Shown: positions 10,443 through 64,000, counted from the stretch's first letter. The stretch is DNA of 64,000 bases from Gammaproteobacteria bacterium (GCA_011375345.1 DRLM01000017.1:675-64674); one strand, 5' to 3'. Numbers and translations are program-made. Notes: generated from the letters alone by a model not told the origin.

Positions 10443-10759
10443 GGTCTTTTCCTTAGTTTGCGACAAACCGATTAGCAGTATAGCCTCCCCGGCATTGAAA
10501 ATCCGATAGTCCCGCTCAGTTTTGATCGGGCAGGAACCAGGATCACCCCCGCCGCCACAGAATGCAGCGTGCGGATTTCCCGCACTGCACGCTTGAGGAA
10601 GGGCTTCACAGCCCAGCGAATGACTGGAAAACGCAACTGATGCAGTTTCAGTCCTGAACGCTGTAACGGAAAACCCTCCGTGCACCAGATGCGCCTCTCT
10701 CCGTAATCGGGCTTTGACGGCCCGCTCGAACCAAAATCAAGCACCTAATGCAGATACCG

Positions 10760-10893
10760 CTTGCTCAGCAACAAGCTGTGCCCGGTGCACGGAAGCACCG
10801 TCATTCATCAAATGATATAAGACAGCCGGATACCGCGTGGGCAGCGGCCAGACTTGAAAAAGGCCAGAAAAGCCTTTTCCAACATCCTGTTAA
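10760..10893 (+). repeat. Intergenic repeat element, copy C (partial: core + 3' hairpin). Same family as 57073..57274 and 59016..59232
   Basis: It shares ...GTGCACGGAAGCACCGTCATTCATCAAATGAT... and ...GGCCAGACTTGAAAAAGGCCAGAAAAGCCTTTTCCAACATCCTGTTA with the other copies (TGCACCGTCA core; CAACATCCTGTTA end). The hairpin is TTGAAAAAGGC/GCCTTTTCCAA. Confidence 0.6.
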
Positions 10894-13889: not shown

Positions 13890-13944
13890 GGTTGCAGTCT
13901 CTGGCAATGGGTGTCGCTTTCTCTCATCATGCAAAAGGGGCCGG

Positions 13945-20099: not shown

Positions 20100-20250
20100 A
20101 TCCCTTTAAGAACCCCTCTTCAGCTTTTGAATTTTCTCTAAATTTTTATAGATGCCGTCCGATATTCTCGGTACCGGCCGCGCCCCCTGGCGCGTTTGCC
20201 TGTCGCCACGGAGGGTTGATTTCCCAGTCGCTGACACCGAGGTGAAGTTA
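20100..20250. promoter_or_regulatory. AT-rich divergent promoter region for the giant surface-protein gene and the 19231..20043 gene
   Basis: A local GC drop (TTATGCAATCCCTTTAAGAACCCCTCTTCAGCTTTTGAATTTTCTCTAAATTTTTATAGATGCC) contains TTGAAT and TATAGA/TAGATG-like hexamers. It lies upstream of the GAGGTGA SD and ATG 20251. Confidence 0.35.
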
Positions 20251-47990: not shown

Positions 47991-48169
47991 GTGAATTCCG
48001 TCAAGGTCTGGGGTAAATTGCCGTATATACTGCTAGCGGTGGATGGCCGCGTATTGCACGCGCAGCCAATCCGACGAATAGTATCGAATCAGGGACCGGT
48101 ACTCCAAGCCAGGCGTGCTTTTCTGCATCCTCGCCGGGGTATCCGCCACGCTACCCAGGGAGTCATACC

Positions 48170-49297
48170 GTGCCGCGGCATCATTTGGACAGACCACCAC
48201 GCTCTCCGTTCGCCCTTGTGCTCCGCCCCGCATTGCTGGCCCTGATGTTGGCGGCTTTGGCGGGCCCGGCGCGGGCCGACACTGTGGTACTCAACCCTGA
48301 TCACCCCGGCCGCTACGTGGTGGTTCCGGGTGATACGCTTTGGGGTATCGCGGCGCGCTTTCTCCGCAATCCCTGGAAATGGCCGGACATCTGGTATATC
48401 AACCCCGCCATTGAAAACCCCCATTTGATCTATCCCGGCGATGTGATCTCCCTGGTCATGCGCAACGGCGAGCCGGTGTTGATGCTGGAACGGGCGCCGG
48501 AAAACGCCCGGCCGGCATTCAAAATGTCACCGGCCCTGAATACCGAGAAACTGTCCCCCCAGGTGCGCATCGAAAAGCTGGAGCGCGCCATCCCCACTTT
48601 ACCCATGGACGCCATCCAGCAGTTTCTCCTGGACGTATATGTGGTGGGCAAACAAGAAGTCGACCACGCCCCCTATATTGTCGCCATGGAAGAGGGCCAT
48701 CTGGTGGCCGCCGCCAACGATACTGTCTATGCCCGCGGCATGATGGACAAGTCCACCGCCCGCTACCAGGCCTTCCGCACCGGCCGGGTTTACCGGGATC
48801 CGGACACCGAGGATGATGAAATCATCGGCTACGAAGCGCTCCGGGTGGGGACAGCCCGGGTGGAGGCCTTTGGCGACCCCACCACGCTGACTTTCCTGGA
48901 TTCCTCGCGGGAAGTGCTGATCGGCGACCGGCTGCTGCCCTTCCCGGAGAATTCAACCCTCGATACGCATTTCATCCCCCGCGCCCCGGAAACGGACATC
49001 CACGGCCGCATCATCGCCATGTTTGATGCCGTCGCGAGGGTGGGCCAATTCCAGGTGGTGGTGCTCAACCGCGGCCACGCCGACGGCGTGCGGCCCGGTC
49101 ACGTGTTTGCGGCCTTTCGCTCCGGCGACAAGGTGCGGGATTTGATCACCGCCAGGAAAAAAGGCCAAACCGTCACGCTGCCCGATGCCCGCTCCGGCCT
49201 TATCATGGTATTTCGGACCTTCGACAGGGTAAGCTATGGCCTGGTCACACAGGCCAGCCGCGACATCCGATTGCACGACACCGTCGGCAACCCCTGA
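48170..49297 (+). CDS. LysM-domain peptidoglycan-binding protein (secreted)
   Basis: Signal peptide ...LLALMLAALAGPARA. YVVVPGDTLWGIAARFLRNPWKWPDIWYINPAIENPHLIYPGDVISL is a LysM domain. Conserved position between def and dprA. Confidence 0.8.
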   Translation: MPRHHLDRPPRSPFALVLRPALLALMLAALAGPARADTVVLNPDHPGRYVVVPGDTLWGIAARFLRNPWKWPDIWYINPAIENPHLIYPGDVISLVMRNGEPVLMLERAPENARPAFKMSPALNTEKLSPQVRIEKLERAIPTLPMDAIQQFLLDVYVVGKQEVDHAPYIVAMEEGHLVAAANDTVYARGMMDKSTARYQAFRTGRVYRDPDTEDDEIIGYEALRVGTARVEAFGDPTTLTFLDSSREVLIGDRLLPFPENSTLDTHFIPRAPETDIHGRIIAMFDAVARVGQFQVVVLNRGHADGVRPGHVFAAFRSGDKVRDLITARKKGQTVTLPDARSGLIMVFRTFDRVSYGLVTQASRDIRLHDTVGNP

Positions 49298-49337
49298 CCT
49301 TATCAGCCGTCGCGGCGGCCACCTGGAGGCACCCGGG

Positions 49338-50462
49338 ATGGCGCAGCGTCCTGACAATAACAACAAACTCGCCCACTGGCTGGCCCTGGTGCGCACCCCA
49401 CACCTGGGGCCGCAGGGTGTTCAGCGCCTGCTGGAACGCTGTGGGAACCCCATCGCCATTTTCGACGCCGCCGCCCGGCCGGGGGAACTCCCCGAACGGG
49501 TGCGGACCGCGCTGACGCGCTTCGATCGGTCCGGTGTGGACCAGGATCTGCGCTGGGCGGAACAACCCGCTCATCATTTGATCACCCTGGACGACGCCCG
49601 CTACCCCGCCCTGCTGAAAGAACTCAAAGACCCGCCGCCGGTGCTGTTCGTGCAGGGCGAGCCCGCCTGCCTCAGCCATCCCCAGGTGGCCGTGGTGGGC
49701 AGCCGCAACCCCAGCCCCGCCGGGCTGGACAATGCCCGCGCTTTCAGCCGTGAGCTGGCCCGGCAGGGGCTGGCCATCACCAGCGGGCTGGCCGTGGGTA
49801 TAGACGGTGCCGCCCACGCCGGTGCCCTCGCAGGCGGCGGGATCACCCTGGCCGTCATCGGCACGGGGCCCGACCGGATCTATCCCTCGGCACACCGCGA
49901 GCTGGCCGAAGCCATCGCCCGGCAGGGCGCGCTGGTGTCGGAGTTTCCACTGGGCACCCCGCCCCGTCCCGCGCACTTCCCCCGCCGCAACCGGCTTATC
50001 AGCGGCCTGAGTCTTGGCACCTTGGTGGTGGAAGCCTCACCGCAAAGCGGTTCGCTGATTACCGCGCGCCTGGCGGCGGAGCAAGGGCGGGACGTGTTCG
50101 CCATTCCCGGCTCCATTCACAACCCCCTGGCGCGGGGCTGCCACGCGCTCATCCGGCAGGGCGCAAAACTCATCGAATCGGCTGAAGACATCGTCGGGGA
50201 ACTGGGCAGCATCGCCCAGTTTGTCCGGAACGCGGCTGCGGCGGCGCCCCGCTCCGATGCCGCCCAGGCAGCCGCCATCCCCCACCAGGACTTGCTCGAT
50301 TGCATGGGTTATGAGCCTGTGCCCCTGGACCTGGTGGTGGAGCGCAGTGGATTGACGGCGGAGCGGGTTTCCTCCATTCTTTTGGAACTGGAATTGCATG
50401 GACTCGTTGCCGCAGCGCCCGGCGGATTCTATTCCCGGCTCGAACCAGAGACCTCAAAATGA
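49338..50462 (+). CDS. dprA: DNA-processing protein DprA/Smf
   Basis: ATG 49338 follows GGAGG. ...VAVVGSRNPSPAGLDNARAFSRELARQGLAITSGLAVGIDGAAHAGAL...IAVIGTG is a Rossmann-like DprA core. Confidence 0.88.
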   Translation: MAQRPDNNNKLAHWLALVRTPHLGPQGVQRLLERCGNPIAIFDAAARPGELPERVRTALTRFDRSGVDQDLRWAEQPAHHLITLDDARYPALLKELKDPPPVLFVQGEPACLSHPQVAVVGSRNPSPAGLDNARAFSRELARQGLAITSGLAVGIDGAAHAGALAGGGITLAVIGTGPDRIYPSAHRELAEAIARQGALVSEFPLGTPPRPAHFPRRNRLISGLSLGTLVVEASPQSGSLITARLAAEQGRDVFAIPGSIHNPLARGCHALIRQGAKLIESAEDIVGELGSIAQFVRNAAAAAPRSDAAQAAAIPHQDLLDCMGYEPVPLDLVVERSGLTAERVSSILLELELHGLVAAAPGGFYSRLEPETSK

Positions 50463-50938
50463 AAGAAAACGTGTTGGACATCCTGATGTATCTGCTTGAA
50501 AACTACATGTACGGAGACATGGACGAGGAGGCGGACCAGGCCTCCCTGAAGGCAGAATTGCAGCGGGCGGGTTTCCCCGGGGGGGAAATCGACAAGGCCT
50601 TCGCCTGGCTGGAGGAACTGGCCAGCCTGCGCGAGAGCGCCGCCACCTCGCCCCTCACCACCCGCCATGCGGTCAGGATCTATACCGCGGAAGAGTGCGA
50701 AAGGCTGGACGTGGAGTGCCGCGGCTTTTTGACCTTTCTCGAGCACTTGGGTGTACTGGATCCCGCCAACCGCGAGATGGTCATTGATCGCGTCATGGCG
50801 CTGGGGGAGGAAGACACTGACCTCACCGACCTCAAATGGGTCATCCTCATGGTGCTGTTCAACCAGCCCGGCAAGGAAGCGGCCTTCGCCTGGATGGAGG
50901 ACCTGGTGTTCGAAGGCACCCCCGGCGCGCTGCACTAA
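50459..50938 (+). CDS. smg: Smg protein (DUF494)
   Basis: MKENVLDILMYLLENYMYGDMDEE... is a typical Smg N-terminus, in the conserved dprA-smg-topA arrangement. Confidence 0.85.
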   Translation: MKENVLDILMYLLENYMYGDMDEEADQASLKAELQRAGFPGGEIDKAFAWLEELASLRESAATSPLTTRHAVRIYTAEECERLDVECRGFLTFLEHLGVLDPANREMVIDRVMALGEEDTDLTDLKWVILMVLFNQPGKEAAFAWMEDLVFEGTPGALH

Positions 50939-51041
50939 ACTAATTCTCCTGGCGTGGCGATACAGGGCTGCGGCGCGACGGCTGCAGCACGGCACCTGAC
51001 CGCGTCACCTATTGACCCCGTTAACCAACCCCTTAAGGCTG

Positions 51042-53345
51042 ATGAGTAAAAATCTGGTCATTGTGGAATCGCCGGCCAAGGCGAAAACCATCAAGAAATA
51101 CCTGGGCAAGGACTTTGAAGTACTCGCTTCCTATGGGCATGTGCGCGACCTGCTGCCCAAGGAGGGCGCAGTCGATCCCGAGCACGATTTCGCCATGAAG
51201 TATCAGCCCATAGAAAAAAATGAAAAGCATGTGGCCGCCATTGCCAAGGCGCTGAAAAAGGCCGATGCCCTCTACCTTGCCACCGACCCGGACCGGGAAG
51301 GCGAAGCCATTTCCTGGCATCTGTGTGAACTGCTGCGGGAAAAAGGTGTGCTCAGGGACAAACCGGTCAAACGGGTGGTGTTTCACGAGATCACCAAGCG
51401 CGCCATCCAGGAGGCCATGGCCCAACCCCGCGATTTGGGCCTGGCCCTGATCAACGCCCAGCAGGCCCGCCGGGCTCTGGATTACCTGGTGGGCTTCAAT
51501 CTTTCGCCCCTGCTATGGAAAAAAATCCGCCCGTCCCTGTCCGCCGGACGCGTGCAAAGCCCGGCTCTGCGCTTGATCGTGGAGCGCGAGGAAGAGATCG
51601 AGAAATTCACTCCGCGCGAGTACTGGACCATCGAAGCGGACTCGGCCAGGGGCAAAGACAAGTTCGTCGCCAAACTACAGCAGTACGCGGGCAAGAAGCT
51701 GACCCAGTTCAGCGTCACCAGGGCCGAACAGGCCGCTGAAATCGAAAAAACCCTCACTGCTGCCGCCAAGGGCCAGCTCACCGTCGCCAAGGTGGAGAAG
51801 AAGTCCCGCAAGCGCAACCCCGCACCGCCCTTTATCACCTCCACCTTGCAACAGGAAGCCTCCCGCAAACTGGGCTTTTCCGCCCAGCGCACCATGCGCA
51901 TCGCCCAGCAGCTCTACGAAGGGGTGGACATCAATGGCGCCGCCGTGGGCCTGATCACCTACATGCGGACCGACTCGGTGAATCTGGCGCAAGAAGCCGT
52001 GGCGGCGCTGCGGGAATTTATCGCCGGACGCTACGGCGCCAAAGCGGTGCCGAAAAAACCCAATGTTTACAAAACCAAGTCCAAAAACGCGCAAGAGGCC
52101 CATGAAGCCATCCGGCCGACCACCGCCAGCCAGACGCCGGACTCGGTCAAAGCCCACTTGAGCGCCGATCAGTTCAAACTCTACGATCTGATCTGGAAGC
52201 GCACCGTCGCCTGCCAGATGATCCACGCCACTTTGCACACGGTGAGCGTGGATCTAAACCCCGGCACCGACGGCGCCCACGTTTTCCGGGCTACCGGTTC
52301 CACCATTGCCGAGCCGGGTTTCATGGCCGTCTACCAGGAAGGGGTGGACGACGCCAAAACCGGCGACGAAGAGAAAATGCTGCCGCCTTTGCAAGAGGGC
52401 GACAAAGTGAAGCTGGTGAAACTGCGTTCAGAACAGCATTTCACCGAGCCACCACCGCGCTTCAGCGAAGCCACCCTGGTGCGGGCCCTGGAAGAGCACG
52501 GCATCGGCCGGCCCTCCACCTATGCCGCCATCATTTCCACGCTGCAGCAGCGCGAATACGTTACCCTGGAAAAACGCCGCTTCCATCCCACCGATGTGGG
52601 GCGGGTGGTCAACCGTTTTCTGACCACCTACTTCACCCAATACGTGGACTACGACTTCACCGCCCGCATGGAAGACGAGCTGGACGCCATTTCCCGCGGT
52701 GAAGAGGACTGGCACCCGGTACTGCGCAAGTTCTGGGAACCGTTCCGGGACAAGGTCAAAGACATCGACGAGAACGTCGCGCGCAAAGACGTCACCCAGG
52801 AGATAACGGACGAGAAGTGCCCCGAGTGTGGCAAAGCCTTGAGTATCCGCCTGGGCAAGCGCGGACGCTTCATCGGCTGCAGCGGTTATCCCGAATGCAA
52901 CTATACCCGCAGCCTGGGCGGCGAAGAGCGTCCCTCTGAACCTGAGAAAGTGGAAGGACGCGAGTGCCCCAAATGCGGCGCCGATTTATACATCCGCACA
53001 GGGCGCTACGGGAAATTCATCGGCTGCAGCGCCTATCCCAAATGCAAGCACATCGAGCCACTGGAAAAACCCCAGGACACCGGCGTGACCTGTCCGGCAT
53101 GCGGCAAGGGCACGCTGCTGCAGCGAAAATCCCGCTACGGCAAGATTTTCTATTCCTGCTCCACCTACCCTGAGTGCAAGTACGCCGTGTGGAATCTTCC
53201 GGTGAAAGAGCCCTGCCCCAAATGCAACTGGCCCATTCTCACCATCAAAACCACCAAGCGGCGGGGCACGGAGAAAGTCTGCCCCCAAAAAGAATGCGAT
53301 TATGCCGTGCCCGCTGAAAATGCGGAGCAGGCCGCTGCAAGCTGA
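51042..53345 (+). CDS. topA: DNA topoisomerase I
   Basis: MSKNLVIVESPAKAKTIKKYLGKDFEVLASYGHVRDL (Toprim). Three C-terminal C4 zinc ribbons (CPECGKAL...GCSGYPEC; CPKCGADL; CPACGKG...CSTYPEC). Confidence 0.92.
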   Translation: MSKNLVIVESPAKAKTIKKYLGKDFEVLASYGHVRDLLPKEGAVDPEHDFAMKYQPIEKNEKHVAAIAKALKKADALYLATDPDREGEAISWHLCELLREKGVLRDKPVKRVVFHEITKRAIQEAMAQPRDLGLALINAQQARRALDYLVGFNLSPLLWKKIRPSLSAGRVQSPALRLIVEREEEIEKFTPREYWTIEADSARGKDKFVAKLQQYAGKKLTQFSVTRAEQAAEIEKTLTAAAKGQLTVAKVEKKSRKRNPAPPFITSTLQQEASRKLGFSAQRTMRIAQQLYEGVDINGAAVGLITYMRTDSVNLAQEAVAALREFIAGRYGAKAVPKKPNVYKTKSKNAQEAHEAIRPTTASQTPDSVKAHLSADQFKLYDLIWKRTVACQMIHATLHTVSVDLNPGTDGAHVFRATGSTIAEPGFMAVYQEGVDDAKTGDEEKMLPPLQEGDKVKLVKLRSEQHFTEPPPRFSEATLVRALEEHGIGRPSTYAAIISTLQQREYVTLEKRRFHPTDVGRVVNRFLTTYFTQYVDYDFTARMEDELDAISRGEEDWHPVLRKFWEPFRDKVKDIDENVARKDVTQEITDEKCPECGKALSIRLGKRGRFIGCSGYPECNYTRSLGGEERPSEPEKVEGRECPKCGADLYIRTGRYGKFIGCSAYPKCKHIEPLEKPQDTGVTCPACGKGTLLQRKSRYGKIFYSCSTYPECKYAVWNLPVKEPCPKCNWPILTIKTTKRRGTEKVCPQKECDYAVPAENAEQAAAS

Positions 53346-53356
53346 GCGCGTCCGGC

Positions 53357-54277
53357 CTATTGTTGCAAGGCCGCCACTATGGCATCGCGATCCAGATGGG
53401 GCGCGAAAAGATGGATGAACTCGAAGGCGTAGGCACGCAGGAAGCGCCCCCGGCGGATGCCGATACGGGTGGTGCTGGGCTCGAACAGGTGGGCCGCATC
53501 CAGCGCCACCAGGTGGGCATCCCGGCTCGGGTCGTAGGCCATTTTCGCCAGTATTCCCACCCCCAGCCCCAGTTCCACATAAGTTTTGATCACATCGGAA
53601 TCGATGGCCGTCAGCACCACATTGGGCTGCAAACCCCTGGCCTCGAAGGCGCTGTTGATCTTTGATCGCCCGGTGAAGGCGAAATCGTAGGTGACGACGG
53701 GATAGCGGGCGATGGCCTCCAAGGTGAGCGGCTTCACCTCCGTCAGGGGATGTCCCGGTGGTACCACCACACAGCGGTTCCACTGGTAGCAGGGCAGCAT
53801 CACCAACTCGGCAAACTGCTCAATGGCCTCCGTGGCGATGGCAAAATCAACGCTGCCCGTGGCGGCCATCTCCGACACCTGGGCCGGATTGCCCTGATGG
53901 ATGTCCAGGCGCACTTCGGGGTATCGCTGCGTGAATGCTCGAATCACCGCCGGCAGGGCATAGCGGGCCTGGGTATGCGTGGTGGCAATGGACAAGGTGC
54001 CCCGGGTCTCGCTGGAAAACTCATCCCCCACCCGCTTGATGTTATCCACCTCTCCCAGCACCCGTTCGGCAATCTCCACCACCGCCCGGCCGGGGTGGGT
54101 GAGCCCCATCAAACGCTTGCCTTTGCGCTCGAAGATCTGCACCTTGAGTTCATCCTCAAGAAGCTGGATCTGATGGCTCACGCCGGGCTGGGCGGTGTGC
54201 AGGCTGGCCGCGGCCTGGGATACATTGAAGCCGTTTTTGACCACTTCCACGATGTAACGCAATTGGCGCAGGGTCAT
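53357..54277 (-). CDS. cysB: LysR-family transcriptional regulator, CysB-like
   Basis: MTLRQLRYIVEVVKNGFNVSQAAASLHTAQPGVSHQIQLLEDELKVQIFERKGKR closely matches the CysB HTH. Divergent from a sulfite-reductase gene. Confidence 0.8.
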   Translation of the reverse strand: MTLRQLRYIVEVVKNGFNVSQAAASLHTAQPGVSHQIQLLEDELKVQIFERKGKRLMGLTHPGRAVVEIAERVLGEVDNIKRVGDEFSSETRGTLSIATTHTQARYALPAVIRAFTQRYPEVRLDIHQGNPAQVSEMAATGSVDFAIATEAIEQFAELVMLPCYQWNRCVVVPPGHPLTEVKPLTLEAIARYPVVTYDFAFTGRSKINSAFEARGLQPNVVLTAIDSDVIKTYVELGLGVGILAKMAYDPSRDAHLVALDAAHLFEPSTTRIGIRRGRFLRAYAFEFIHLFAPHLDRDAIVAALQQ

Positions 54278-54728
54278 GGCAAAATATACCCAATTGTGAT
54301 TAAACTATAAGATTATATTATTTTTCATACTATACAAGCCTTGTTACTGTGACCGGCTCAATGGGCGTATTGTCTTTTCCGGCATGTCCGACAGACCGCT
54401 TTCCCTTGCGGGGCAAAGCCTGAGGCTTTGGGCAGCAGCCGCCTGTGAATTACAATTTCCGGCTCGCACCACGGCCCGCACGCTGTCCAGCGGCGTTTTC
54501 AAGCCGGCAACACAACCATTGTCGGGTGAACGTCGCGGCACAGGGAGGTGCCGCCATTGGGGCCAGCCACTGGGAGCCCGCGAAACACCCGCCATGTTGC
54601 CAAACGGCGGGCGGATTCGCAGGTGACCATCAAACAGCCCAGGACGAGCTGTTTGATTGCCGGGTCAATAATCTGCGTTGTGGCAACAAGATCCAGATGA
54701 AGATGAAGGAGAGTAACGCCCCTGGGGC

Positions 54729-57050
54729 GTGAACAACATTATGAACGCGAACACCAACCTGGTTGATGACGAAGAAATCAGCCGCTATGAAGAGTCGGTC
54801 GAGGCATTTATGGACGGGCGCATGGACGGCGACCGTTTCATGTCCTACCGTTTGCAGCACGGCATTTACGGCCAGCGTCAGGACGGCGTGCACATGGTGC
54901 GTATCAAAGTGCCCGGCGGTGGCCTGAACGCGGCGCAGCTTGGCGTGATCGGCGATTGCCTGGAGCGCTACTCCCAACACGACTGCGCCCACGTCACCAC
55001 GCGCCAGGATATCCAAATCCACCATGTCCCCATACGGGAGACTGCAGTGGTCATGCGCGCCCTGGGTGAAGCGGGGCTCACCACCCGCGAGGCCTGCAAC
55101 AACACCGTCCGCAACATCACCGCCTGTCCCCTGGCCGGGGTGTGCCCCAGGGAACACACCGACATCACCACCCACCTCATGGGCGCTGTGCAACGCTTTT
55201 TGCGATACCCCCTCACCCAGCAGATGCCACGTAAGTTCAAAATCAGCTTCTCCGGCTGCGAGACCGATTGCGCCCAGGGCCTGATGCACGACCTGGGCGT
55301 GGTGGCAGTGAACAACAACGGCCGCTTCGGCTTCAAAATCCTCGCCGGAGGGGGCCTGGGTCACAAACCCCGGCACGCCATCACCGTGGAAGAATTCATC
55401 GAAGAGCGCGATCTGCTGGCCTCCATGGAAGCCCTGCTGACCCTGCACAACAAATATTCCGACCGCAAGCGCCGCGCCCGCGCCCGAATCAAATTCCTGG
55501 TAGACAAATTCGGCGCCGAAGGCTTTTTGGAGAAATACCGCGAGGAACTGGCCCGTACCAAGGTGGCCTATGCCGACTACGATACTCCCAAGGGCCAGTG
55601 GCAGGCCGGCGCCACCACCGGTGAGCTGCCCCTGCCCGGCGCGCCCCGCCACACTCTGGAGCAAAAGCAGGCGGGCCTGTTCGTGCTCCCCATCAGCCTG
55701 CCCACCGGCGATATCACGGCGCCGCAGCTCAGGGGCATTGCCCAACTGATGACGGACCACGGCATCAAGGAAATCCGCACCAGCCAAGACCAACAGCTCA
55801 TGCTGGTGGGGGTGGCGAAAATCAAACTGGATCCCTTGCGCCAGGGCCTGACCGCGCTGGGTCTGGGCGAGCCGAAAACGGGCGACAACATCGTTGCCTG
55901 CCCCGGCACGTCCACCTGCCGTCTGGGTATTACGTCGTCGAAAGTGATCGCCCCCAAACTCAGCGCTGGTCCCCTGGATTTGCGCATTCGCGTCAGCGGC
56001 TGCCAAAACGGCTGCGCCCAGCCGGAAACCGGGGACATCGGCATTTACGGCGAGGGCAAACGCCTGCACGGCAAACTCGTCCCTCATTATCAAATGTACC
56101 TGGGTGGCGACGGCCGCAGTGGAGGGGGGCTGGCGCTGAAGGGCCCCTCCATTCCGGTCATGCGCATCGAGCAGGCCGTGGCACGCCTGAGCAGCCACTA
56201 CCGCGAAGACCGCAACGGTGAGGAAAGCTTCTATCACTGGCTGCGCCGCCGCGGCATGGATCACGTGACCGAACTCCTGGCCGATCTCAAAACCGTGGCA
56301 GAGAGCGAGGTCACCGTCCTGGCCCGCGATCACGGCGAAGAAGAGCAGTTCCGCGTCCTGCAACTGGGTGGCGGCGAGTGTGCCGGCGCAGCGCAGAGCC
56401 TGGTATCCGCCAATTTTGCCGAGGCCGCCCATGAGCGCAGCTACCGCGACGCCTTCCGCCTCCAGCGCCAGCCCGAGGACGCTATCGAGTGCGCCGAGCA
56501 GATGCTGCGCCTGCTGGCCCAGTCGGTGCTGTTCTTGGCCGGCCGGGAAGCGCCCGGGAGCCTGGCGGAAATGGCCACCTTGCTCGCCGAAGCCCTGCCC
56601 GACAACTCTCTGGGTGCTCAGCTGGCCGAACTCGTCTCCGCCCTGAACGCGCAGCGCCAGCATTTCGAGGACCACGCCATGAAAGCCCTGTCCGTCCGCA
56701 TGGACCAGTGGATGCTGGACGCCGCGGCCACTTGCCAGGCGGTGGACCAGCAACTGGACCTTTCCGCCTCCCTGCCGACCCTGGACACCGGTGGCCCTGC
56801 CACCGCGCCGGTGATTGACCTTACCGGCTATGGTTGTCCGCTGCACTACATCAAGGCGCGCAACGCCTTGCGCGACCACCGCTCGGGTGAAGAAGTGGAA
56901 TTCCTGTTCGTCTCAGGTGACCCGTCGGAGCAGGTGAAATCCAGCCTGGCCAGCGACGGCCACACCGTGGTAAGCGTAACGGAAGAGGCAACGGCCACCC
57001 GCATACGGGTACGCAAGGGAGAAGGACAGGCCCAGGCCTCGGCTTCTTGA
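54729..57050 (+). CDS. Sulfite/nitrite reductase haemoprotein (siroheme-[4Fe-4S], CysI/Sir-like) fused to a C-terminal TusA-like (CPxP) sulfur-carrier domain
   Basis: Two nitrite/sulfite-reductase ferredoxin-like half-domains. Cluster Cys: ACPGTSTCRLG (55897..55930) and SGCQNGCAQP (~55993..56022). C-terminal LTGYGCPLHYIKARNALRDHRSGEEVEFLFVSGDP (56820..) matches the TusA CPxP motif and fold pattern. Confidence 0.8.
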   Translation: MNNIMNANTNLVDDEEISRYEESVEAFMDGRMDGDRFMSYRLQHGIYGQRQDGVHMVRIKVPGGGLNAAQLGVIGDCLERYSQHDCAHVTTRQDIQIHHVPIRETAVVMRALGEAGLTTREACNNTVRNITACPLAGVCPREHTDITTHLMGAVQRFLRYPLTQQMPRKFKISFSGCETDCAQGLMHDLGVVAVNNNGRFGFKILAGGGLGHKPRHAITVEEFIEERDLLASMEALLTLHNKYSDRKRRARARIKFLVDKFGAEGFLEKYREELARTKVAYADYDTPKGQWQAGATTGELPLPGAPRHTLEQKQAGLFVLPISLPTGDITAPQLRGIAQLMTDHGIKEIRTSQDQQLMLVGVAKIKLDPLRQGLTALGLGEPKTGDNIVACPGTSTCRLGITSSKVIAPKLSAGPLDLRIRVSGCQNGCAQPETGDIGIYGEGKRLHGKLVPHYQMYLGGDGRSGGGLALKGPSIPVMRIEQAVARLSSHYREDRNGEESFYHWLRRRGMDHVTELLADLKTVAESEVTVLARDHGEEEQFRVLQLGGGECAGAAQSLVSANFAEAAHERSYRDAFRLQRQPEDAIECAEQMLRLLAQSVLFLAGREAPGSLAEMATLLAEALPDNSLGAQLAELVSALNAQRQHFEDHAMKALSVRMDQWMLDAAATCQAVDQQLDLSASLPTLDTGGPATAPVIDLTGYGCPLHYIKARNALRDHRSGEEVEFLFVSGDPSEQVKSSLASDGHTVVSVTEEATATRIRVRKGEGQAQASAS

Positions 57051-57072
57051 ACAACGAGGGGAAAACAACAGA

Positions 57073-57274
57073 ACCGGGCGGTGCCGCAAGCGGGTCCGTT
57101 CCCTGTGCTTTGGCAGTTTGTTGAAAAGCTCCGTTGTTCAACCAGCGGTGTGGTGCAGGGTTGCACCGTCACGTGCAATGACGGCAAGTCAGTGAACAGT
57201 GAGGCGGCCGCAAACCGCGTACGCGGCGGCCGGCCTTGCAAAAGGCCAGGAGGCCTTTTGCAGCACCCTGTTAG
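57073..57274 (+). repeat. Intergenic repeat element, copy A (full length), between convergent gene ends. Terminal hairpin GCAAAAGGCC-AGGA-GGCCTTTTGC
   Basis: About 80% similar to the reverse complement of 59016..59232. Shared blocks are TTGGCAGTTTGTTGAAAAGCTCCGTTGTTCAACCAGCGGTGTGGTGCAGGGTTGCACCGTCACGTGCAATGACGGCAAGTCA and GGCGGCCGGCCTTGCAAAAGGCC. It ends CAGCACCCTGTTA, where TTA is the TAA stop of the minus-strand gene 57271..57795. Confidence 0.7.
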
Positions 57275-57795
57275 AGAGTGGAAAGCAGCGCGTTGTGCGG
57301 CACGCCGCTGGCGCGCATGTTTTCCGCCAGTGTTTTCGCGGTGAAGCGGTCCACTGAGCGGGCTTTGAAGAACACCCCGCGGAACTCCCCATTGATCGGC
57401 TCAACGACGATGAAATACGTTCCCCCCCCCTCAAAGGTGAAGGGATAGCGTTTTTTCATCACTGCTGTCTTCCAAAAGGGCCCGACCTCGGTTTTATTCT
57501 CCAGCTCCACAGACACCTCCACCCGGGGGTGCATGTAGATCAGGGTGTAATCCCCTTTGGCCAGATCGAGCAGATGATCGCCGTCCACCGCGATTTTCAG
57601 GGCATTGTCGGAAAAGCCCATGGCCCGCTCGGTTTGGGGACGGAGAAAATAGACCGTCGCAACGGCCGGCGCCGCCGGGCCGCTGACCAGATGGTGGCGC
57701 ACATTGACGGACGTGCCACTCAAAGAGCAGCCTGCCACCAGCAAGACCACCCACAAGGCCACGCCTGTTGTTTTGATTGTGCGACGATCGCGCAT
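57271..57795 (-). CDS. Lipoprotein of unknown function (DUF2846-like) containing an in-CDS G9 homopolymer
   Basis: Internal ATG 57795 gives MRDRRTIKTTGVALWVVLLVAGCS (lipobox). G9 (plus-strand C9 at 57422..57430) encodes E-G-G-G. Stop codon lies inside repeat copy A. Confidence 0.6.
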   Translation of the reverse strand: MRDRRTIKTTGVALWVVLLVAGCSLSGTSVNVRHHLVSGPAAPAVATVYFLRPQTERAMGFSDNALKIAVDGDHLLDLAKGDYTLIYMHPRVEVSVELENKTEVGPFWKTAVMKKRYPFTFEGGGTYFIVVEPINGEFRGVFFKARSVDRFTAKTLAENMRASGVPHNALLSTL

Positions 57796-58145
57796 TTCTG
57801 GTCCCCCTCCCGCAGCACGCGAATCCTTTAAGAGTCGGAATGATGGCACCGGAAGCGGGGAGAGATCAAGCATGCGGCCCCGTCATGCTACTTTGCCCGG
57901 CCTCAGCGAGGAAAAAGCCCGCTGAGTCGCGTATACTTGCCGGCTCTGCCGCCACCGCGCGTCCTGAGGTTTCAGCGCCGCCTGACAAGGCGGGAGCGCT
58001 GCAGCGCCTGGCACAATAGAATGAGCGCGCGGCTCTCAGGCGCATCGGTTTTCTGTATGTCAGTGCCAAGCCGGCGATGGCCGACATCCCGCCGGGCTTG
58101 GACCTTAAGTCCAGCGATTTTTCTGAGATAGAGAGGGCACAGCCA

Positions 58146-59018
58146 ATGTCAAAAAAGCATCCCATTATCGCCGTGACCGGTTCCTCCGGCGCCGGCACCA
58201 CCACTGTCAAGAACGCCTTCGAACACATTTTCCGCCGCGAGGGCATCAAACCGGAAGTGGTGGAAGGGGACAGCTTCCACCGCTTTGACCGTGCCGCCAT
58301 GAAAAAAGCCGTCGAAGAAGCGGCCAAAGAAAACAAAACCATCAGCCACTTCGGCCCCGAAGCCAATGTGTTCGACAAGCTGGAAGAATTGTTCCGTACC
58401 TACGGCGAAACCGGCGGCGGGAAAAAACGCTACTATGTGCACAATGAAACAGAAGCGGCCCTGCGCGGCGCGGCGCCCGGCACTTTCACCGACTGGCAGC
58501 CGCTGGAAGCCGGTTCCGATCTCCTGTTTTACGAGGGGCTGCACGGTGGGGTGGTGCATGAGGGCGTGGACGTGGCCCAGTGGGTGGACCTCTTGATCGG
58601 CGTGGTGCCCATCGTCAACCTGGAGTGGATTCAGAAAATCCACCGCGACAGTGCCGAACGTGGCTACTCCGCCGAAGCCATCGTGGACACCATTTTGCGC
58701 CGCATGCCCGACTACGTGCAGTTCATCACCCCGCAGTTTTCCCGCACGGACATCAACTTTCAGCGGGTGCCGGTGGTGGACACCTCCAACCCCTTCATCG
58801 CGCGGGACATCCCCACGCCCGATGAGAGTTTCATCGTCATCCGCTTCCGCTATCCGCAAAAGCAGGACTTCCCTTACTACCTGAACATGATCCAGGATTC
58901 CTGGATGTCCCGTCCCAACACCCTGGTGGTGCCCGGCGGCAAAATGGGCTTTGCCATGGAGTTGATTCTCACCCCCATCATCCATGACATGATGGAGCAG
59001 AAACGCAAGCTGGGCTAA
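58146..59018 (+). CDS. prk: Phosphoribulokinase
   Basis: MSKKHPIIAVTGSSGAGTTTVKNAFEHIFRREGI...VEGDSFHRFDR...LLFYEGLHGG...EWIQKIHRD is a classic bacterial (CbbP/PrkB) PRK. Confidence 0.9.
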   Translation: MSKKHPIIAVTGSSGAGTTTVKNAFEHIFRREGIKPEVVEGDSFHRFDRAAMKKAVEEAAKENKTISHFGPEANVFDKLEELFRTYGETGGGKKRYYVHNETEAALRGAAPGTFTDWQPLEAGSDLLFYEGLHGGVVHEGVDVAQWVDLLIGVVPIVNLEWIQKIHRDSAERGYSAEAIVDTILRRMPDYVQFITPQFSRTDINFQRVPVVDTSNPFIARDIPTPDESFIVIRFRYPQKQDFPYYLNMIQDSWMSRPNTLVVPGGKMGFAMELILTPIIHDMMEQKRKLG

Positions 59019-59232
59019 CAGGATGTTGAAAAAGGCCTTCCTGGTTCCTGGCCTTTTTCAAGGCCGGCCGCCGCCAACACGCTTTGCGGCGGCCCCACCT
59101 GTGCAATGACTTGTCATCATTGCACATGACGGTGCAGCTCTGCACCGCACCCAGCTGGTTGAAAAACGGGGTTTTTCGACCAGTTGCCAAGTCACCGCGT
59201 CACCCGGTGCCGCCACAAGCGGGCGGCACCGG
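59016..59232 (-). repeat. Intergenic repeat element, copy B (inverted relative to A and C). Supplies the prk stop codon and the last ~13 codons of the PAP2 gene
   Basis: The plus strand reads TAA-CAGGATGTTGAAAAAGGCC...GGCCTTTTTCAA directly after prk. The reverse complement aligns with copy A across ~200 bp, including the TGCACCGTCATGTGCAATGATGACAAGTCA core and the CCGGTGCCGCC-CGCTTGT-GGCGGCACCGG hairpin. Confidence 0.7.
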
Positions 59233-60148
59233 GAAGACCCAGGCTCAGCGCCACCCCGGCCACAATGAACTCCAGCAGGGCCGCCTGTGGGTAGCGGCTG
59301 TCGTAAAGCAGCAGCAGGTATACGGTGGCTGAAACCAACAAGGCCGCCAGTACCTGCTGCCCGGCGCGGGTCATTCCAAAGCGCCAGTGTCCCGCCAGAC
59401 ACATTCCCGCCAGCGCGCCCCACCAGCCCACCGCGGCGCCGACCAATACGTCCAGCGGCCAGTGCACACCGACCATAATGCGGGACACACCGACACCGGC
59501 TGCCATGATCAGCAAGGCGATGCGCAAGCCCCGCGAGGGAAAACAGGCGCTCATCACTGCCGCAAACATGAAGGCAGTGGCGGTGTGTCCCGAAGGGAAG
59601 GCTTTGGAAGACAACACCGGTCCCACGGAAAAGAAGCTCTCCGGCGGCAACACCGCTGGCGGCCGGGGCACATTGAACACGATTTTGCCTGTTTGAATCA
59701 GAACCGCCGTCACCACGGCCGCGCAAAACATCTTCCATACCAGCCCGGGACGCCGGCCCACCCACGGCAATGTCAGGGCAAGGACCAGCAGGGCGTCGCC
59801 CAATACCGTCCAGTTGGCCCAAAAGCCCGGGAAGGCATAAACACTTAGACGGTTTATCGTATAAAACCATTCCTGATTGGCGCCGGACAAGGCCACAAGG
59901 CCGGCCAGGGCCAATGCACTTAGTGGTACCAGATGTACACGTTTAAAGAGGTGTTGCGCTGATGTGCAAGACAACAAAAAGGACGCCTCGGAAAATTTGA
60001 GGATAAGAAGTCTAACACGTCCGTCACCGCGTACCCTTGGCCAAATATTTGGTGTATGCTGTTGCCGCGACCTGGATAGCATTCCTTCCAGCGCGCTGAC
60101 AAACGCGACGTCGCAAGGGTAAGCCAAACGCCCCCGTGTCGGGAACAA
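59192..60148 (-). CDS. PAP2-superfamily phosphatase (membrane)
   Basis: KIVFNVPRPP (KxxxxxxRP), FPSGHTATAF (PSGH) and SRIMVGVHWPLDV (SRxxxxxHxxxD) are the PAP2 signature motifs. Start uncertain (TTG/GTG candidates near 59940). The ORF-track start 60148 lies in an AT-rich stretch. Confidence 0.6.
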   Translation of the reverse strand: MFPTRGRLAYPCDVAFVSALEGMLSRSRQQHTPNIWPRVRGDGRVRLLILKFSEASFLLSCTSAQHLFKRVHLVPLSALALAGLVALSGANQEWFYTINRLSVYAFPGFWANWTVLGDALLVLALTLPWVGRRPGLVWKMFCAAVVTAVLIQTGKIVFNVPRPPAVLPPESFFSVGPVLSSKAFPSGHTATAFMFAAVMSACFPSRGLRIALLIMAAGVGVSRIMVGVHWPLDVLVGAAVGWWGALAGMCLAGHWRFGMTRAGQQVLAALLVSATVYLLLLYDSRYPQAALLEFIVAGVALSLGLPGAARLWRHRVTR

Positions 60149-60785
60149 TTACTATTAGAACAGGCCATGATCCCTTTGGCAGGACGCCACACTAATAGCT
60201 TCAATGCACCTCTTCCCCGCGCGGCTTGCAGCGCGGCGGACAGTGATACGGCGCTTACGCCCGGGCGATGCCCGCGGCACGAACGTCATCAGGGCGCCTG
60301 TCCACGGTTCACGACAGCGCCTGCCGCTTGTCCGCGACAAGCGCTCAAACCCACCGCCGGTTTCTCTGTAGGCCGCAGGCCTGATGATTTGTCCGGCCGC
60401 TTTCGCCGTTCCCTCCCTGCTCCCATAGCGCAGTCGCCACGCCCGCGGGCCGTGGGCCATCCCGGCGCCGGGCGCTGCCGTCGCATGCGCTTATGTCGTC
60501 CGCCGCCGGCGTCGATAACAATGGCACCAAGGATTCACTTGTCAGAGTTTCAAGGATATGTTGCGAAGTACAAGTCATCATCGAACCAACGCCGCCCCGT
60601 GACGGGCGCGGCCGTTTAAGCGGGCCTGACGGCGCCAAAGACGCCGACGGCCAGGTTGAAGCACATTGGGGGAGCCTTTAAAAAACCGCGCAGCGGAAAC
60701 GGACAACCGTGCCGCGCCGGTCGCGTCGATCCACCCGCCGTCGAAGCATGCGAACCTGAATACAGCTGAGCATCGAGGTATCACC

Positions 60786-61343
60786 GTGAGAAAGTTAATC
60801 GTCCTGTTACTGACGCTGGCCCTGCTGCCCCTGGCCGGCGCCGCCGAATCGCCAAAGGGAAACATTCCGGACCGCTTCACCCTCACACCTGATCCGGAAT
60901 TCCGCAGCCTCGAGGACAAAGTGAAGTCCTTGAAACAAGACGTTATCGATCTCAGCACTGATCTTTACAAACTGCAGGAATCACTTCTGACCCCGTCTTC
61001 CACCCAGGTGAACTTTTACGTGTCGGTGGACGGACTGAGCGACCTGTCCCTGGACAGCGTGGAGCTGAAAGTGGACAACCGCACGGTGAAAAATTACATC
61101 TATACCGCCCGCGAGCAGGCCGCCCTGCGCCGCGGCGGCGTGCAGCAGCTCTTTGCCGGCAACCTTCCCATTGGCACGCACCGGTTTGCGGCCACCTTCG
61201 CCAGCACCAATGCCGCCGGCAAAGTCAGCCGGGGCAGCGTCAGCGGCCAGTTCGACAAGGAACTGGCACCCAAACACATCGAAATGAAGTTCGTCGCCGA
61301 CAAAGGCGGTGAACCCCGCGTCGAACTCAAAGAATGGGAATAG
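60786..61343 (+). CDS. Secreted protein of unknown function (~185 aa)
   Basis: GTG 60786 gives VRKLIVLLLTLALLPLAGAA-ESP (signal peptide). An amphipathic/coiled segment (LEDKVKSLKQDVIDLSTDLYKLQESL) is followed by a beta-rich region. Followed 13 nt later by the TPR gene. Confidence 0.5.
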   Translation: MRKLIVLLLTLALLPLAGAAESPKGNIPDRFTLTPDPEFRSLEDKVKSLKQDVIDLSTDLYKLQESLLTPSSTQVNFYVSVDGLSDLSLDSVELKVDNRTVKNYIYTAREQAALRRGGVQQLFAGNLPIGTHRFAATFASTNAAGKVSRGSVSGQFDKELAPKHIEMKFVADKGGEPRVELKEWE

Positions 61344-61356
61344 TCGCGGTCCTGTC

Positions 61357-64000
61357 ATGATCAAGCTCCATAACAACAAGCGCTGGTGCGCCGCCGTACT
61401 GTGCATTGCCAGTGCATTGCCGGCAGCGGCTGCCAAAGCGCCTCCCGCGGCGTCTTCCCTGGCGGATCTCAAGCGCCGGGAGGCGGCTTTCGATCTCTAC
61501 CGTCAGCATTACCTCAGCGCCATCTCACGGCTGTCCACGCAGGCGGCCGATGACCCCTGGGTCGCCCTCAACCTCGCCACCTTGTACGAAGCCTGGGGCT
61601 TGCCGCAGGCTGCCGTGGAACAACTGGAACGGGCCGCCCGCCAGGGCGAGCGCATCCCCGCCCGCAGCTGGTTGAGCCTGGCCTGGAACCGTTACTTCGA
61701 ACGCGATCTGGGCGCCGCCCGAGGGGCGCTGCACCATTTGAAAGATCTGCCCCGGGGCAATGACCGGGCCGAGCGGGATTTCTTGCGCGGCCTGCTCATG
61801 CTGGGCAGCGGCCGCTACGGGGACGCCGCCAAGGCTTTCCAGGCGGTGGGCGGGCAAGGTGCCTGGAGCGAACTGGCCCGTTACAACCTGGCGCTGGCCC
61901 GGCTCGGTGCCGGGCGGCAGGAACAGGGGCTGACGCTGCTTGAAAGCCTGGCGCCCGGCGCGAGCTCCGCCCTGGCGGATTACCACGGTCCCTTGAATGC
62001 CGCCCTGGGGTATCGCCTGCTGCGCGCCGGGCAGCCGGACAGCGCCGCATCGTGGCTGGCGCAGGTGGGCAGGGGCGAAACCCGCTATCGCGCGGCCCAG
62101 CTGGCCCTGGGATGGACTGCCTTCCGGCAGCGGGATTATGACGCCGCCCTCAAGCACTGGGACAGCCTGACGACGGGCAACGCCTTCGATGCCGTCACCC
62201 ACGAAGCCCTGCTGGGCAGCGCCCGGGCCCGCTATGAATCCGGCGCCTTTGACCAGGCCGTGAGCCAGTACCGGCGTGCTCTCGACAGTCTGGCCGCCAC
62301 CGACAAGACCCTGTTGGAGCTGGGCACCGACGCCGCCCTGGCCGATTACATCCAGGCCCTGCTGGCCGCCAACCCCGGTGCCGAAGAAGCGGGCCGCTAT
62401 TGGAAGGTGGAGAGACTGCCCCCGGGGCCGCCGAGCATTCTGGCCGTCAACACGCTGCTGGATCCGGTGTTCCAGGCCGCCCTGGGCAGTTACCGGGACA
62501 CACAGTACTTGATCCGGTCCCTGGAAACCTGGGGCGGCGATCTGGTGGCCTACCGCGATCTGGCGGAAGCGCGCCAGGCCGACTACTGGGACCGGGCCCC
62601 CCGCGCCATGGCCCGCGCCCGCACCCTGGATGAGGCAGGTTTCGCCCAGACGGTTAAACGGTACAAAAGAGCGCTGGCGCGGGCCCAGGCCAGCGAAGAC
62701 GTCGCCGCGCTGGCCACCAGCGAACAGATGCAGACCATGAGCCTGCTGGAGCGGGTGGAAATCCGCCTGGCGCGCCTCAAGGGCTACATCGTTGATCATG
62801 AGGAACTGGCCCAAAAATACGAATTCCTGCGCGGTCGGTTCATCTGGCAGCTACACCAGCAATTCCCCGAGCGCGTGGCCCAGACCCGGGCGGCTATCGA
62901 AGAGCTTGAAAAAGCCCTGGCGGAAGCCGGCCGCAACCAGGCCCGCTTGCAACGCAGCGCCCAGGCCGCAACCCGCGGCTTCAAGGGCTTCGACAAAAAC
63001 TTCTCCCGCTTAAAGGCGCGTCAGGATGCATTGCTTGAGCGCGCCCGGGACCTGGCGGAGGAACAACTGGACTATCTGGTCACACGCCTGCGGCAGACCC
63101 TGAACAAGCAAAGGGAGCGGACCCGGCAACGGCTGGCCCAGGCCCAGCTCGGCCTGGCGCAATCTCTGGACCGCCAGGCCCAAAACGCCGGGGACAAGGC
63201 GGACTACAATCCAGCCATCGCCGCTTACGAGGCTTTTCTGGCCTACCCCGGCGACAGCACCCTGAAGAACGCCACGCGGCGGCGCATCGCCGATCTGGCC
63301 ATGATCCGCGCCGAATTCCGCTTCAACCGCTTTCTGGACAAATCCTCGCCCAACACCACGGCGGCCTTTGTCATATACGAACCGGTCACCGCCAAATACG
63401 AGCGACTGCTGCAGACGCTGCCGGACAGCCCCGGCAACGACCGGGTGCTGTACCAGTTGGCCAAAGCGCACGACCGCGGAGGCGAGCTGGAAAAATCCCT
63501 GGCCGCCCTGACCCGCCTGACCCGCGATTATCCCGACAGCGGCTACCACGACGAAGCACAGTTCCGCCGGGGTGAACTGCTGTTCACTTTCAACCTGCCC
63601 AAACAGGCGGCGGAAGCCTACGGCGCGGTGGTGGTGCGCGGCCCTGAATCAGCTTATTACGAGAAATCCCTCTACAAACACGGCTGGGCGCTGTACAAGG
63701 CCAATCACCTGGAAGCCGCCTTGCAATCCTTCATGGTGATGCTGGACGCCAAGCTGGGCGAGGGACAGGAAGCGCTGGACGAAGGCGACCGGGAACTCGT
63801 CTCCGACGTGCTGCGCGTAAGCAGCCTGAGCCTGGCCCAGCTCGGTGGCGTCAGTGTCCTGGAGCGCCTTTTTGAAAAACTGGGACCACGTCCGTACGAA
63901 CACCGGTTGTACACTGATCTGGCGGCGCTGTATCTCAAACAGGAGCGCATCGAAGACGCCGCCGAGACCTATCGCGCCTTTGTGGAGCGCCATCCCAACC
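61357..64000 (+). CDS. Large secreted TPR-repeat/coiled-coil protein, 3'-truncated by the window edge
   Basis: ATG 61357 gives MIKLHNNKRWCAAVLCIASALPAAAA (signal peptide). Frame 1 stays open to position 64000. TPR-like AxxxY/LG repeats (ALNLATLYEAWG; AELYLKQERIEDAAETYRAFVERHP; LYKHGWALYKANHLEAALQSF) flank a central Q/R/A-rich coiled coil. Not in the ORF track because it has no in-window stop. Confidence 0.7.
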   Translation, partial: MIKLHNNKRWCAAVLCIASALPAAAAKAPPAASSLADLKRREAAFDLYRQHYLSAISRLSTQAADDPWVALNLATLYEAWGLPQAAVEQLERAARQGERIPARSWLSLAWNRYFERDLGAARGALHHLKDLPRGNDRAERDFLRGLLMLGSGRYGDAAKAFQAVGGQGAWSELARYNLALARLGAGRQEQGLTLLESLAPGASSALADYHGPLNAALGYRLLRAGQPDSAASWLAQVGRGETRYRAAQLALGWTAFRQRDYDAALKHWDSLTTGNAFDAVTHEALLGSARARYESGAFDQAVSQYRRALDSLAATDKTLLELGTDAALADYIQALLAANPGAEEAGRYWKVERLPPGPPSILAVNTLLDPVFQAALGSYRDTQYLIRSLETWGGDLVAYRDLAEARQADYWDRAPRAMARARTLDEAGFAQTVKRYKRALARAQASEDVAALATSEQMQTMSLLERVEIRLARLKGYIVDHEELAQKYEFLRGRFIWQLHQQFPERVAQTRAAIEELEKALAEAGRNQARLQRSAQAATRGFKGFDKNFSRLKARQDALLERARDLAEEQLDYLVTRLRQTLNKQRERTRQRLAQAQLGLAQSLDRQAQNAGDKADYNPAIAAYEAFLAYPGDSTLKNATRRRIADLAMIRAEFRFNRFLDKSSPNTTAAFVIYEPVTAKYERLLQTLPDSPGNDRVLYQLAKAHDRGGELEKSLAALTRLTRDYPDSGYHDEAQFRRGELLFTFNLPKQAAEAYGAVVVRGPESAYYEKSLYKHGWALYKANHLEAALQSFMVMLDAKLGEGQEALDEGDRELVSDVLRVSSLSLAQLGGVSVLERLFEKLGPRPYEHRLYTDLAALYLKQERIEDAAETYRAFVERHPN

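Follow-up and report, generated by a model that had tools for sequence, protein, structure and literature searches.

Small, non-coding elements that are bounded by inverted repeats and lie between genes include the Correia elements (CREE) of Neisseria, ERIC/IRU, RUP and Nezha, all of which are MITEs. Those of the Correia type generate a short A/T-rich target duplication, which for Correia itself is TA, are often co-transcribed with their neighbours and can contribute terminators. In plants, the Tourist-like MITEs derive from PIF/Harbinger, eukaryotic relatives of IS5. The REP/BIME repeats of enterobacteria and pseudomonads are palindromic intergenic sequences found at 3' ends and between convergent genes, where their reported roles are in mRNA stability and termination. 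REPs are only 20–40 nt long, are mobilised by RAYT and have neither an inverted-repeat pair nor a target duplication.

Here, we analysed a 64-kb stretch of DNA from an uncultured vent gammaproteobacterium (the window refers to this whole stretch), which contains three copies, A, B and C, of an intergenic repeat. Comparison with relatives and with full-length ISs leads us to conclude that these are very probably copies of a MITE, a non-coding derivative of approximately 140–170 bp of ISRssp10-like IS5-family ISs. This is an ordinary kind of element, and the finding leaves the current understanding of mobile elements unchallenged and will not surprise a specialist. The family itself seems to be undescribed, and a literature search for its end sequences and IS names found nothing relevant. 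Like Correia, ERIC, RUP and Nezha, the copies are small, non-coding, intergenic and bounded by inverted repeats, with a short A/T-rich duplication, but they differ in the sequence of the inverted repeats and the parent IS family, in their 4-bp YTAR target, and in having several independent perfect hairpins where those elements have a single long one. With the Tourist-like MITEs they share the status of non-autonomous derivatives of an IS5-superfamily DDE transposon and a duplicated target of the TAA/TTA type; however, the Tourist-like elements are eukaryotic and have no sequence relation to the window family.

An earlier note on the window, made from its sequence, had likened the repeat to both REP/BIME and Correia-like elements, and had left open whether it was a mobile or miniature element or a family of terminator-associated sRNAs. 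The terminal inverted repeats, target-site duplications and cognate full-length IS5-family elements described below uphold the first option, and with it the Correia analogy. The likeness to REP/BIME was not sustained: the units are 140–180 bp, have inverted repeats and a 4-bp target-site duplication, and their ends match those of DDE elements of the IS5 family.

Extent of the three copies

The homology of the three copies proposed previously was borne out by nhmmer (E of 1e-50 to 1e-67). A profile built from the three recovered them in the 64-kb window at E = 6e-67, 7e-65 and 1e-49, and nhmmer E-values, with single-sequence searches included, ranged from 1e-28 to 1e-67. Neither the profile nor single-sequence searches revealed a fourth copy in the window. 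The units range from 141 to 176 bp (Table 1). A and B are identical at 140/176 aligned positions (79.5%), which agrees with the identity of roughly 80% given in the earlier note but not with the span of approximately 200 bp claimed there, and C is approximately 65% identical to each of them. The shared motifs that had been quoted are present in the copies, and A and B do bracket the lipoprotein and prk genes in inverted orientation.

The limits of A and B were set by their metagenome relatives, whose alignments span exactly 57110/57114 to 57273/57274 in A and run from 59190 to 59015 in B. The left limits proposed previously were therefore wrong, with homology beginning at 57110 (A) and 59190 (B), the latter 1 nt past the TGA stop of PAP2. 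Local alignment of the two 59-nt upstream flanks with each other gave a score of 10, and random 59-nt pieces of the window scored 7.6±1.8 against the A flank and 8.3±2.3 against the B flank. As 11–22% of the random pieces reached the flank score, the extension over 57073–57109 is no better than chance. Because homology is absent from the upstream flank, the perfect 5' hairpin that had been assigned to B, which lies inside the PAP2 gene, and the last ~13 PAP2 codons are not part of the repeat, and B encodes none of that gene.

Table 1. Positions of the repeat copies and their component parts in the window
Feature	Position	Strand	Evidence or remark
A, whole unit with both flanking 4-mers (165 bp)	57110..57274	+	alignments of relatives; 79.5% identity to B
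A, left flanking 4-mer TTGG	57110..57113	+	read as a decayed TTAG target duplication; right partner TTAG; TTGG on the left in 5/30 copies
A, left terminal inverted repeat CAGTTTGTTGAAAAG	57114..57128	+	3 mismatches to family consensus CAGGCTGTTGAAAAA
A, internal hairpin H2, GGTGCA-GGGT-TGCACC	57152..57167	+	folds; compensatory changes in family
A, 3' hairpin H5, GCAAAAGGCC-AGGA-GGCCTTTTGC	57238..57261	+	folds; overlaps right inverted repeat; candidate bidirectional terminator
A, right terminal inverted repeat, reverse complement CAGGGTGCTGCAAAA	57256..57270	+	
A, right target-site duplication TTAG	57271..57274	+	reverse complement CTAA contains TAA stop of minus-strand lipoprotein gene
B, whole unit with both flanking 4-mers (176 bp)	59015..59190	-	occupies prk–PAP2 spacer bar 1 nt
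B, left flanking 4-mer TTGG	59187..59190	-	1 nt past PAP2 TGA stop (59192-59194)
B, left terminal inverted repeat CAACTGGTCGAAAAA	59172..59186	-	probably decayed; pairs with 59152-59166 as hairpin H1
B, 3' hairpin H5, TTGAAAAAGGCC-N12-GGCCTTTTTCAA	59026..59061	-	folds
B, right terminal inverted repeat	59019..59033	-	+ strand reads CAGGATGTTGAAAAA; 1 mismatch to consensus
B, right target-site duplication TTAG	59015..59018	-	+ strand CTAA contains prk TAA stop (59016-59018)
C, unit in tandem-gene spacer	10753..10893	+	apparently older copy; left inverted repeat degenerate, left limit uncertain (10745-10757)
C, right inverted repeat	10875..10889	+	
C, right 4-mer TTAA	10890..10893	+	

The duplications that flank the window copies are imperfect. 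A and B are each flanked by TTGG and TTAG, in which 3 of 4 bases match, the left end of C is unrecognisable, and the left inverted repeats of A and B match the consensus only in part. Given these decayed ends (TTGG for TTAG, and mismatched inverted repeats) and identities of 65–80%, the window copies are probably immobile remnants, or fossils, of the element. No gene was called within A or B. A small conserved ORF was considered and rejected: A and B have a single frame in common, of ~19 codons, in which their differences fall on all codon positions and are not concentrated at the third, C has a stop in this frame, and the frame crosses hairpins.

Relatives in metagenomes and cognate IS5-family elements

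When JGI metagenomes were scanned with the 3'-end pattern AAGGCC..GCCTT...CA.CA.CCTGTTA, 35 loci were returned, many of them from three samples, and approximately 12 match most of the three-copy profile beyond the pattern. The repeat family occurs in several environmental metagenomes. We tabulated 30 full elements of 48–185 bp, which have no coding capacity. Their terminal inverted repeats are 15–16 nt, with the consensus CAGGNTGTTGAAAAA at both ends, and the general layout is [TTAG/TTAA] CAGG(C/G)TGTTGAAAAAC ... GTTGAAAAAGGCC-loop-GGCCTTTTTCAACATCCTG [TTAG/TTAA]. Although the pattern did not require a left end, the 5' end of each relative is the inverted complement of its own 3' end. Two copies were found in each of four contigs (L046, L052, L019 and L040), compared with three in the 64-kb window. 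A scan of species-representative genomes with a second pattern (GGTGCA-N5-GCACCGTCA...AAAGGCC) gave 10 matches, all due to chance and with no homology outside the pattern, and two scans of viral contigs gave none.

The sequences outside the flanking 4-mers are unrelated among loci, and the 4-mers are direct, not inverted, repeats. On the left, the 4-mer is TTAG in 11 of the 30 elements, TTGG in five, TTAA in four, and CTAG and CTAA in two each. The left and right 4-mers are the same in 13/30 elements and their fourth bases agree in 24/30 (Fisher p = 4e-4); because TTA was built into the right side of the pattern, unbiased evidence of duplication comes only from the left end and the fourth base. 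Judged on these, the 4-mers behave as a target-site duplication of TTAR/YTAR. The earlier note had suggested looking among relatives for further copies, for a preferred insertion site and for duplications, and this search produced the approximately 30 relatives with their YTAR flanks.

Variation among the copies was also seen. The five with TTGG on the left (A, B, L028, L032 and L047) have TTAG or TTAA on the right, and the same A-to-G change thus recurs across independent insertions. The smallest form, a 52-bp minimal element (L052:8916-8967), consists of only the two inverted repeats and one hairpin between TTAG and TTAA flanks, and sits on the TAA stop of a convergent ORF of 443 codons. In L046:1367-2174, a 166-bp and a 144-bp copy from the closest subfamily, separated by 490 bp and oriented alike, differ by a clean deletion of hairpin H3, indicating that each hairpin module is gained or lost as a whole.

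The 64-kb window contains neither a transposase nor a full-length IS of the matching type, and ISs with matching ends are known from other organisms and metagenomes (L038, L055–L063). Three independent sets of elements connect the ends of the repeat to transposase genes: L038, the annotated plasmid ISs, and the IS that encodes P0121. The L038 element is 1.35 kb and encodes a 374-aa DDE transposase with DUF772 and DDE_Tnp_1 domains. With flanks and ends separated by hyphens, it reads TTAA-CAGGTTGCTGACAAAGGCC...CAGCAGCCTG-TTAG or, in detail, TTAA-CAGGTTGCTGACAAAGGCC-GCGATCCGAC-GGCCTT ... CTTTGTCAGCAGCCTG-TTAG. An AAGGCC-loop-GGCCTT hairpin just inside its inverted repeat, downstream of the transposase gene, is in the position of the 3' hairpin of the MITE. 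The L038 transposase scores below the cut-off on two models, IS1182 (244, cut-off 270) and IS5_4 (117, cut-off 140).

The nearest annotated plasmid relatives are IS5-family elements. The ends of ISRssp10 are TTAA-CAGGCTGCTGAAAAAGTC...GACTTCTTCAGCAGCCTG-TTAA, and ISRssp10 and its plasmid relatives begin TTAA-CAGGCTGCTGAAAAAG and are flanked by TTAA/TTAA three times and TTAG/TTAG twice, the other flanks being CTAA/TTAA and TCAA/TTAA. An IS in Thauera reads CTAA-CAGGTTGTTGATTT...TTTTCAACACCCTG-CTAG. In L050, CAGGGTGTTGAAAAAGG is followed by the beginning of a second transposase, which shares 41.6% identity with that of L038. The complete version of this second transposase, P0121 (361 aa), occurs abundantly in metagenomes and lies in a 1499-bp IS that is flanked by CTAG, CTAA or TTAA and has a left end, CAGGGTGTTGAAAAA, identical at 15/15 positions to several MITE left ends. 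Both P0121 (285 bits) and the ISRssp10 transposase (267 bits) exceed the cut-off (140) of the NCBIfam IS5-family model NF033581, and IS5 has been reported to duplicate 5'-YTAR-3' (PMC5009759). The ends of the ISRssp10/ISRsp13-like ISs and the P0121 IS (CAGGCTGCTGAAAAA and CAGGGTGTTGAAAAA) are the same as the MITE consensus CAGGNTGTTGAAAAA, and their flanking 4-mers are YTAR, as in the MITE. However, the window elements are only 140–170 bp and have no transposase gene, and their interior, a chain of hairpins, is unrelated to the IS interior. The 1.5-kb IS5-family element whose ends are identical to those of the MITE carries a second ORF of 114 aa (L063:2583-2927, also in L064–L068), which begins within the transposase gene, with a 4-nt overlap at the stop, and for which no Pfam hit is recorded.

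From these features, a DDE transposase produced by a full-length IS would act in trans, recognising the 15–16 nt terminal inverted repeats, and insertion would occur at a YTAR tetranucleotide (here TTAG or TTAA) that would then be duplicated on both sides. Tolerated insertions would often land on a stop codon, because YTAR holds TAA or TAG and is rare in a genome with 63% G+C, and the duplication would keep the reading frame. The body is a chain of near-perfect hairpins, of which the last, with the order A-tract, GGCC, loop, GGCC and T-tract, extends into the right inverted repeat.

Insertion at native stop codons

As the earlier note had observed, the right end of A falls on the TAA stop of the lipoprotein gene, and that of B on the TAA stop of prk. 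A protein identical to the prk product was found in a hydrothermal-vent metagenome, and the contig there and a Logan contig match window positions 48146–64000 at 99.99% and 100%. In four loci from relatives (L013, L014, L017 and L018), the arrangement sulfite reductase–lipoprotein–prk–PAP2 is largely retained, and across about 20 kb no copy of the repeat was found in them. The element is therefore lineage-specific at the A and B sites. As the prk genes of these nearest relatives are only 84–85% identical, none of the four provides an exact empty-site sequence.

The claim that the element supplies stop codons did not survive this comparison. PRK ends with KRKLG followed by TAA, and its orthologue in L014, which has no element, is the same length, with ACC TAA at the end of its gene and a 4-nt overlap with PAP2. 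The last residues of the lipoprotein are STL, and those of its orthologues are ANL and SNL at the same position. As the orthologues without the element end at the same residues, the prk and lipoprotein stops are native, and in the window each TAA lies inside the duplicated YTAR. Once B and one copy of TTAG are removed, a single nucleotide separates the TGA of PAP2 from the TAA of prk, in a compact junction like that of L014. These comparisons indicate that the element inserted on native stops and that the duplication preserved them. The position of A and B next to the lipoprotein and prk stops would thus be due to YTAR targeting and duplication. A composite transposon with A and B as its arms and the lipoprotein gene and prk as its cargo was considered and rejected, as relatives without the elements have the same gene order.

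The reverse complement of TTAG is CTAA, and a YTAR target can hold a TAA or TAG stop. In 10/30 elements, the TTA of the right duplication is the stop of a long convergent ORF (148–592 codons), and in 2/30 the stop of an upstream ORF lies inside the left duplication. No orientation bias is claimed from these numbers (10 versus 2), as the CCTGTTA in the pattern excludes copies of opposite orientation flanked by CTAA or CTAG. The window contains only 74 YTAR sites (1.16 per kb), which a rough gene set divides into 36 in coding sequence, six at stop codons and 32 elsewhere in non-coding DNA. Stop codons therefore make up a sizeable share of the targets where insertion is tolerated.

What had appeared to be an odd pattern, repeats that end on stop codons and fill a convergent spacer, would be explained simply by targeting of YTAR in the manner of IS5, with TAA and TAG stops among the few usable sites in a G+C-rich genome. 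The prk–PAP2 and sulfite reductase–lipoprotein junctions of this bacterium would have been remodelled by insertion. For annotators, this defines a repeat family with known ends, target and cognate ISs that could otherwise be mistaken for sRNA genes or terminators.

The spacer between the reductase and lipoprotein genes (window 57051–57109) also differs from those of relatives in other ways. An extra 78-aa ORF is present there in L017 and L018 (L017:8806-9114) and a PAPS-reductase gene in L013 (L013:7987-9097), both of which are missing from the window, and only the first ~25 nt past the reductase stop resemble L017. This spacer has therefore been remodelled apart from the MITE insertion. The reductase gene upstream of A (54729–57050, +) is sulfite/nitrite reductase-like, with Pfam matches to NIR_SIR_ferr, NIR_SIR and TusA, and the fusion to a C-terminal TusA domain is kept in relatives (L011:6596-8905).

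Hairpins and alternative origins

All copies fold as a chain of local, mostly perfect hairpins, here H1 to H5. H1 is formed by the left inverted repeat and its internal complement, and H2 is, for example, GGCGGGGCA-CGGA-TGCCCCGCC. H3 and H4 vary in sequence among subfamilies while retaining the hairpin form, and H5 is the 3' hairpin. RNAalifold recovered H1, H2 and H5 from 16 copies, with compensatory changes in 7/26 pairs, and the covariance analysis that the earlier note had proposed did reveal such changes, in H1 and H2. One covarying pair of H2 (columns 59–70) is UA in five copies, GC in five and CG in four.

In H5, an A-tract precedes a 4-bp GGCC core with its loop and a T-tract of 4–5 T follows, with a predicted stability of approximately -20 kcal/mol on either strand. 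It is the sole hairpin with a T-run between prk and PAP2. A simple terminator scan called no intrinsic terminator at the 3' hairpins of the copies, because the T-run is absorbed into the stem. H5 is a plausible candidate terminator in both directions.

The earlier note had considered that the resemblance might extend only to generic G+C-rich terminator hairpins. Such hairpins would have arisen independently at convergent gene ends. The A-tract/GGCC/T-tract arrangement is indeed a simple motif, but the A–B homology covers the whole unit, E-values reach the levels given above, and the same architecture recurs in about 30 unrelated contexts. On this evidence a chance similarity of terminators can be regarded as excluded, with a negligible probability.

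Hairpins with compensatory changes would also be expected of sibling sRNA genes, or of sRNAs derived from 3' UTRs, each with its own intrinsic terminator. B folds much better than its shuffled sequences (z = -6.8), but A and C fold no better than theirs (z = -2.0 and -1.5). When the two strands are compared as RNA, that of the element is the more stable by a mean of 3.5 kcal/mol; it folds better in 20 copies and the reverse does so in 10 (Wilcoxon p = 0.013), and it forms 100 G.U pairs, compared with 71 for the reverse. This is a weak hint only, as the copies are related and one A+T-rich subfamily contributes much of the difference. GGA was found in 33/122 predicted loops, compared with 16±3.4 after loop shuffling, in a survey of the hairpin loops of A, B and C in the window and of L019–L052. 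The excess is concentrated in H2, as CA-NGGAU-G, and in the 3' hairpin, as AGGA(C/U), and the 12-nt loop of B has two GGA. These loops resemble CsrA/RsmA sites and also the CAGGATG core of the inverted repeat, and could reflect protein binding or simply that core. No Rfam family reached its gathering score, either in the window or across the 10 related loci that were scanned. The best sub-threshold hits, gyrA (27.3 bits, threshold 45) and a weak rsmX hit (19.8 bits, threshold 56) that might have favoured sRNAs, were attributed to the hairpin architecture and discounted. Promoter prediction over 56800–59500 gave no sigma-70-like call. Moreover, the most conserved stretch (CAACATCCTGTTA), the inverted complement of the 5' end, lies past the hairpin and T-run, outside any terminated transcript. 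Flanking direct repeats and ends identical to those of transposase-carrying ISs account for the family without an RNA function, and the sRNA interpretation offered in the earlier note is very unlikely.

A different mobile origin, as a REP/BIME repeat spread by a RAYT (Y1) transposase or as a PATE of the IS200/IS605 family, would fit a body made of local palindromes with hairpins at both ends and a location between convergent genes. IS200/IS605 elements have subterminal hairpins and choose their target tetranucleotide via a guide sequence, as in the guide–target pairing of IS608. The left 4-mer of the present elements is complementary to internal sequence at the foot of H1 in many copies. Its fourth base co-varies with an internal base there (GC 7, AU 5, GU 1 and CG 1 of 16; columns 13 and 49 of alignment A2, for example in L022:1594-1752, L027:1627-1786 and L032:3742-3901), and in several copies the whole 4-mer is complemented (TTAG..CTAA, TTAA..TTAA, CTAG..CTAG and TTGG..CCAG). 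A plain target duplication does not predict this covariation, which counts against the MITE reading; template-switch 'correction' of quasi-palindromes is one possible cause. However, the elements have true terminal inverted repeats, shared with DDE elements that pass the IS5-family model, and the 4-mer is duplicated on both sides. REP and IS200/IS605 elements are not known to make a target duplication. No Y1 transposase or RAYT gene was found next to the copies or in the loci examined, and a REP or IS200/IS605 origin appears highly improbable.

Starting from an IS5-derived MITE, the element could have been co-opted as a 3'-UTR module, with its hairpins kept by selection on RNA and the GGA loops of H2 (CA-NGGAU-G) and the 3' hairpin serving as CsrA/RsmA-type sites or as stabiliser or terminator sites. 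We consider this unlikely; if it were true, the spread of the MITE onto stop codons would rewire the post-transcriptional control of genes such as prk.

Elsewhere in the window, a 3014-codon ORF (20152–29196, +) is rich in D-x-D-G-D motifs and has many families of internal direct repeats, with periods of ~159, 216 and 339 bp. Its product looks like a giant repeat-containing surface or adhesin-type protein. Two adjacent genes (12897–13997 and 13945–14997, both on the minus strand) are paralogous, with direct repeats D12–D14 that are 70–77% identical and spaced at ~1.1 kb.
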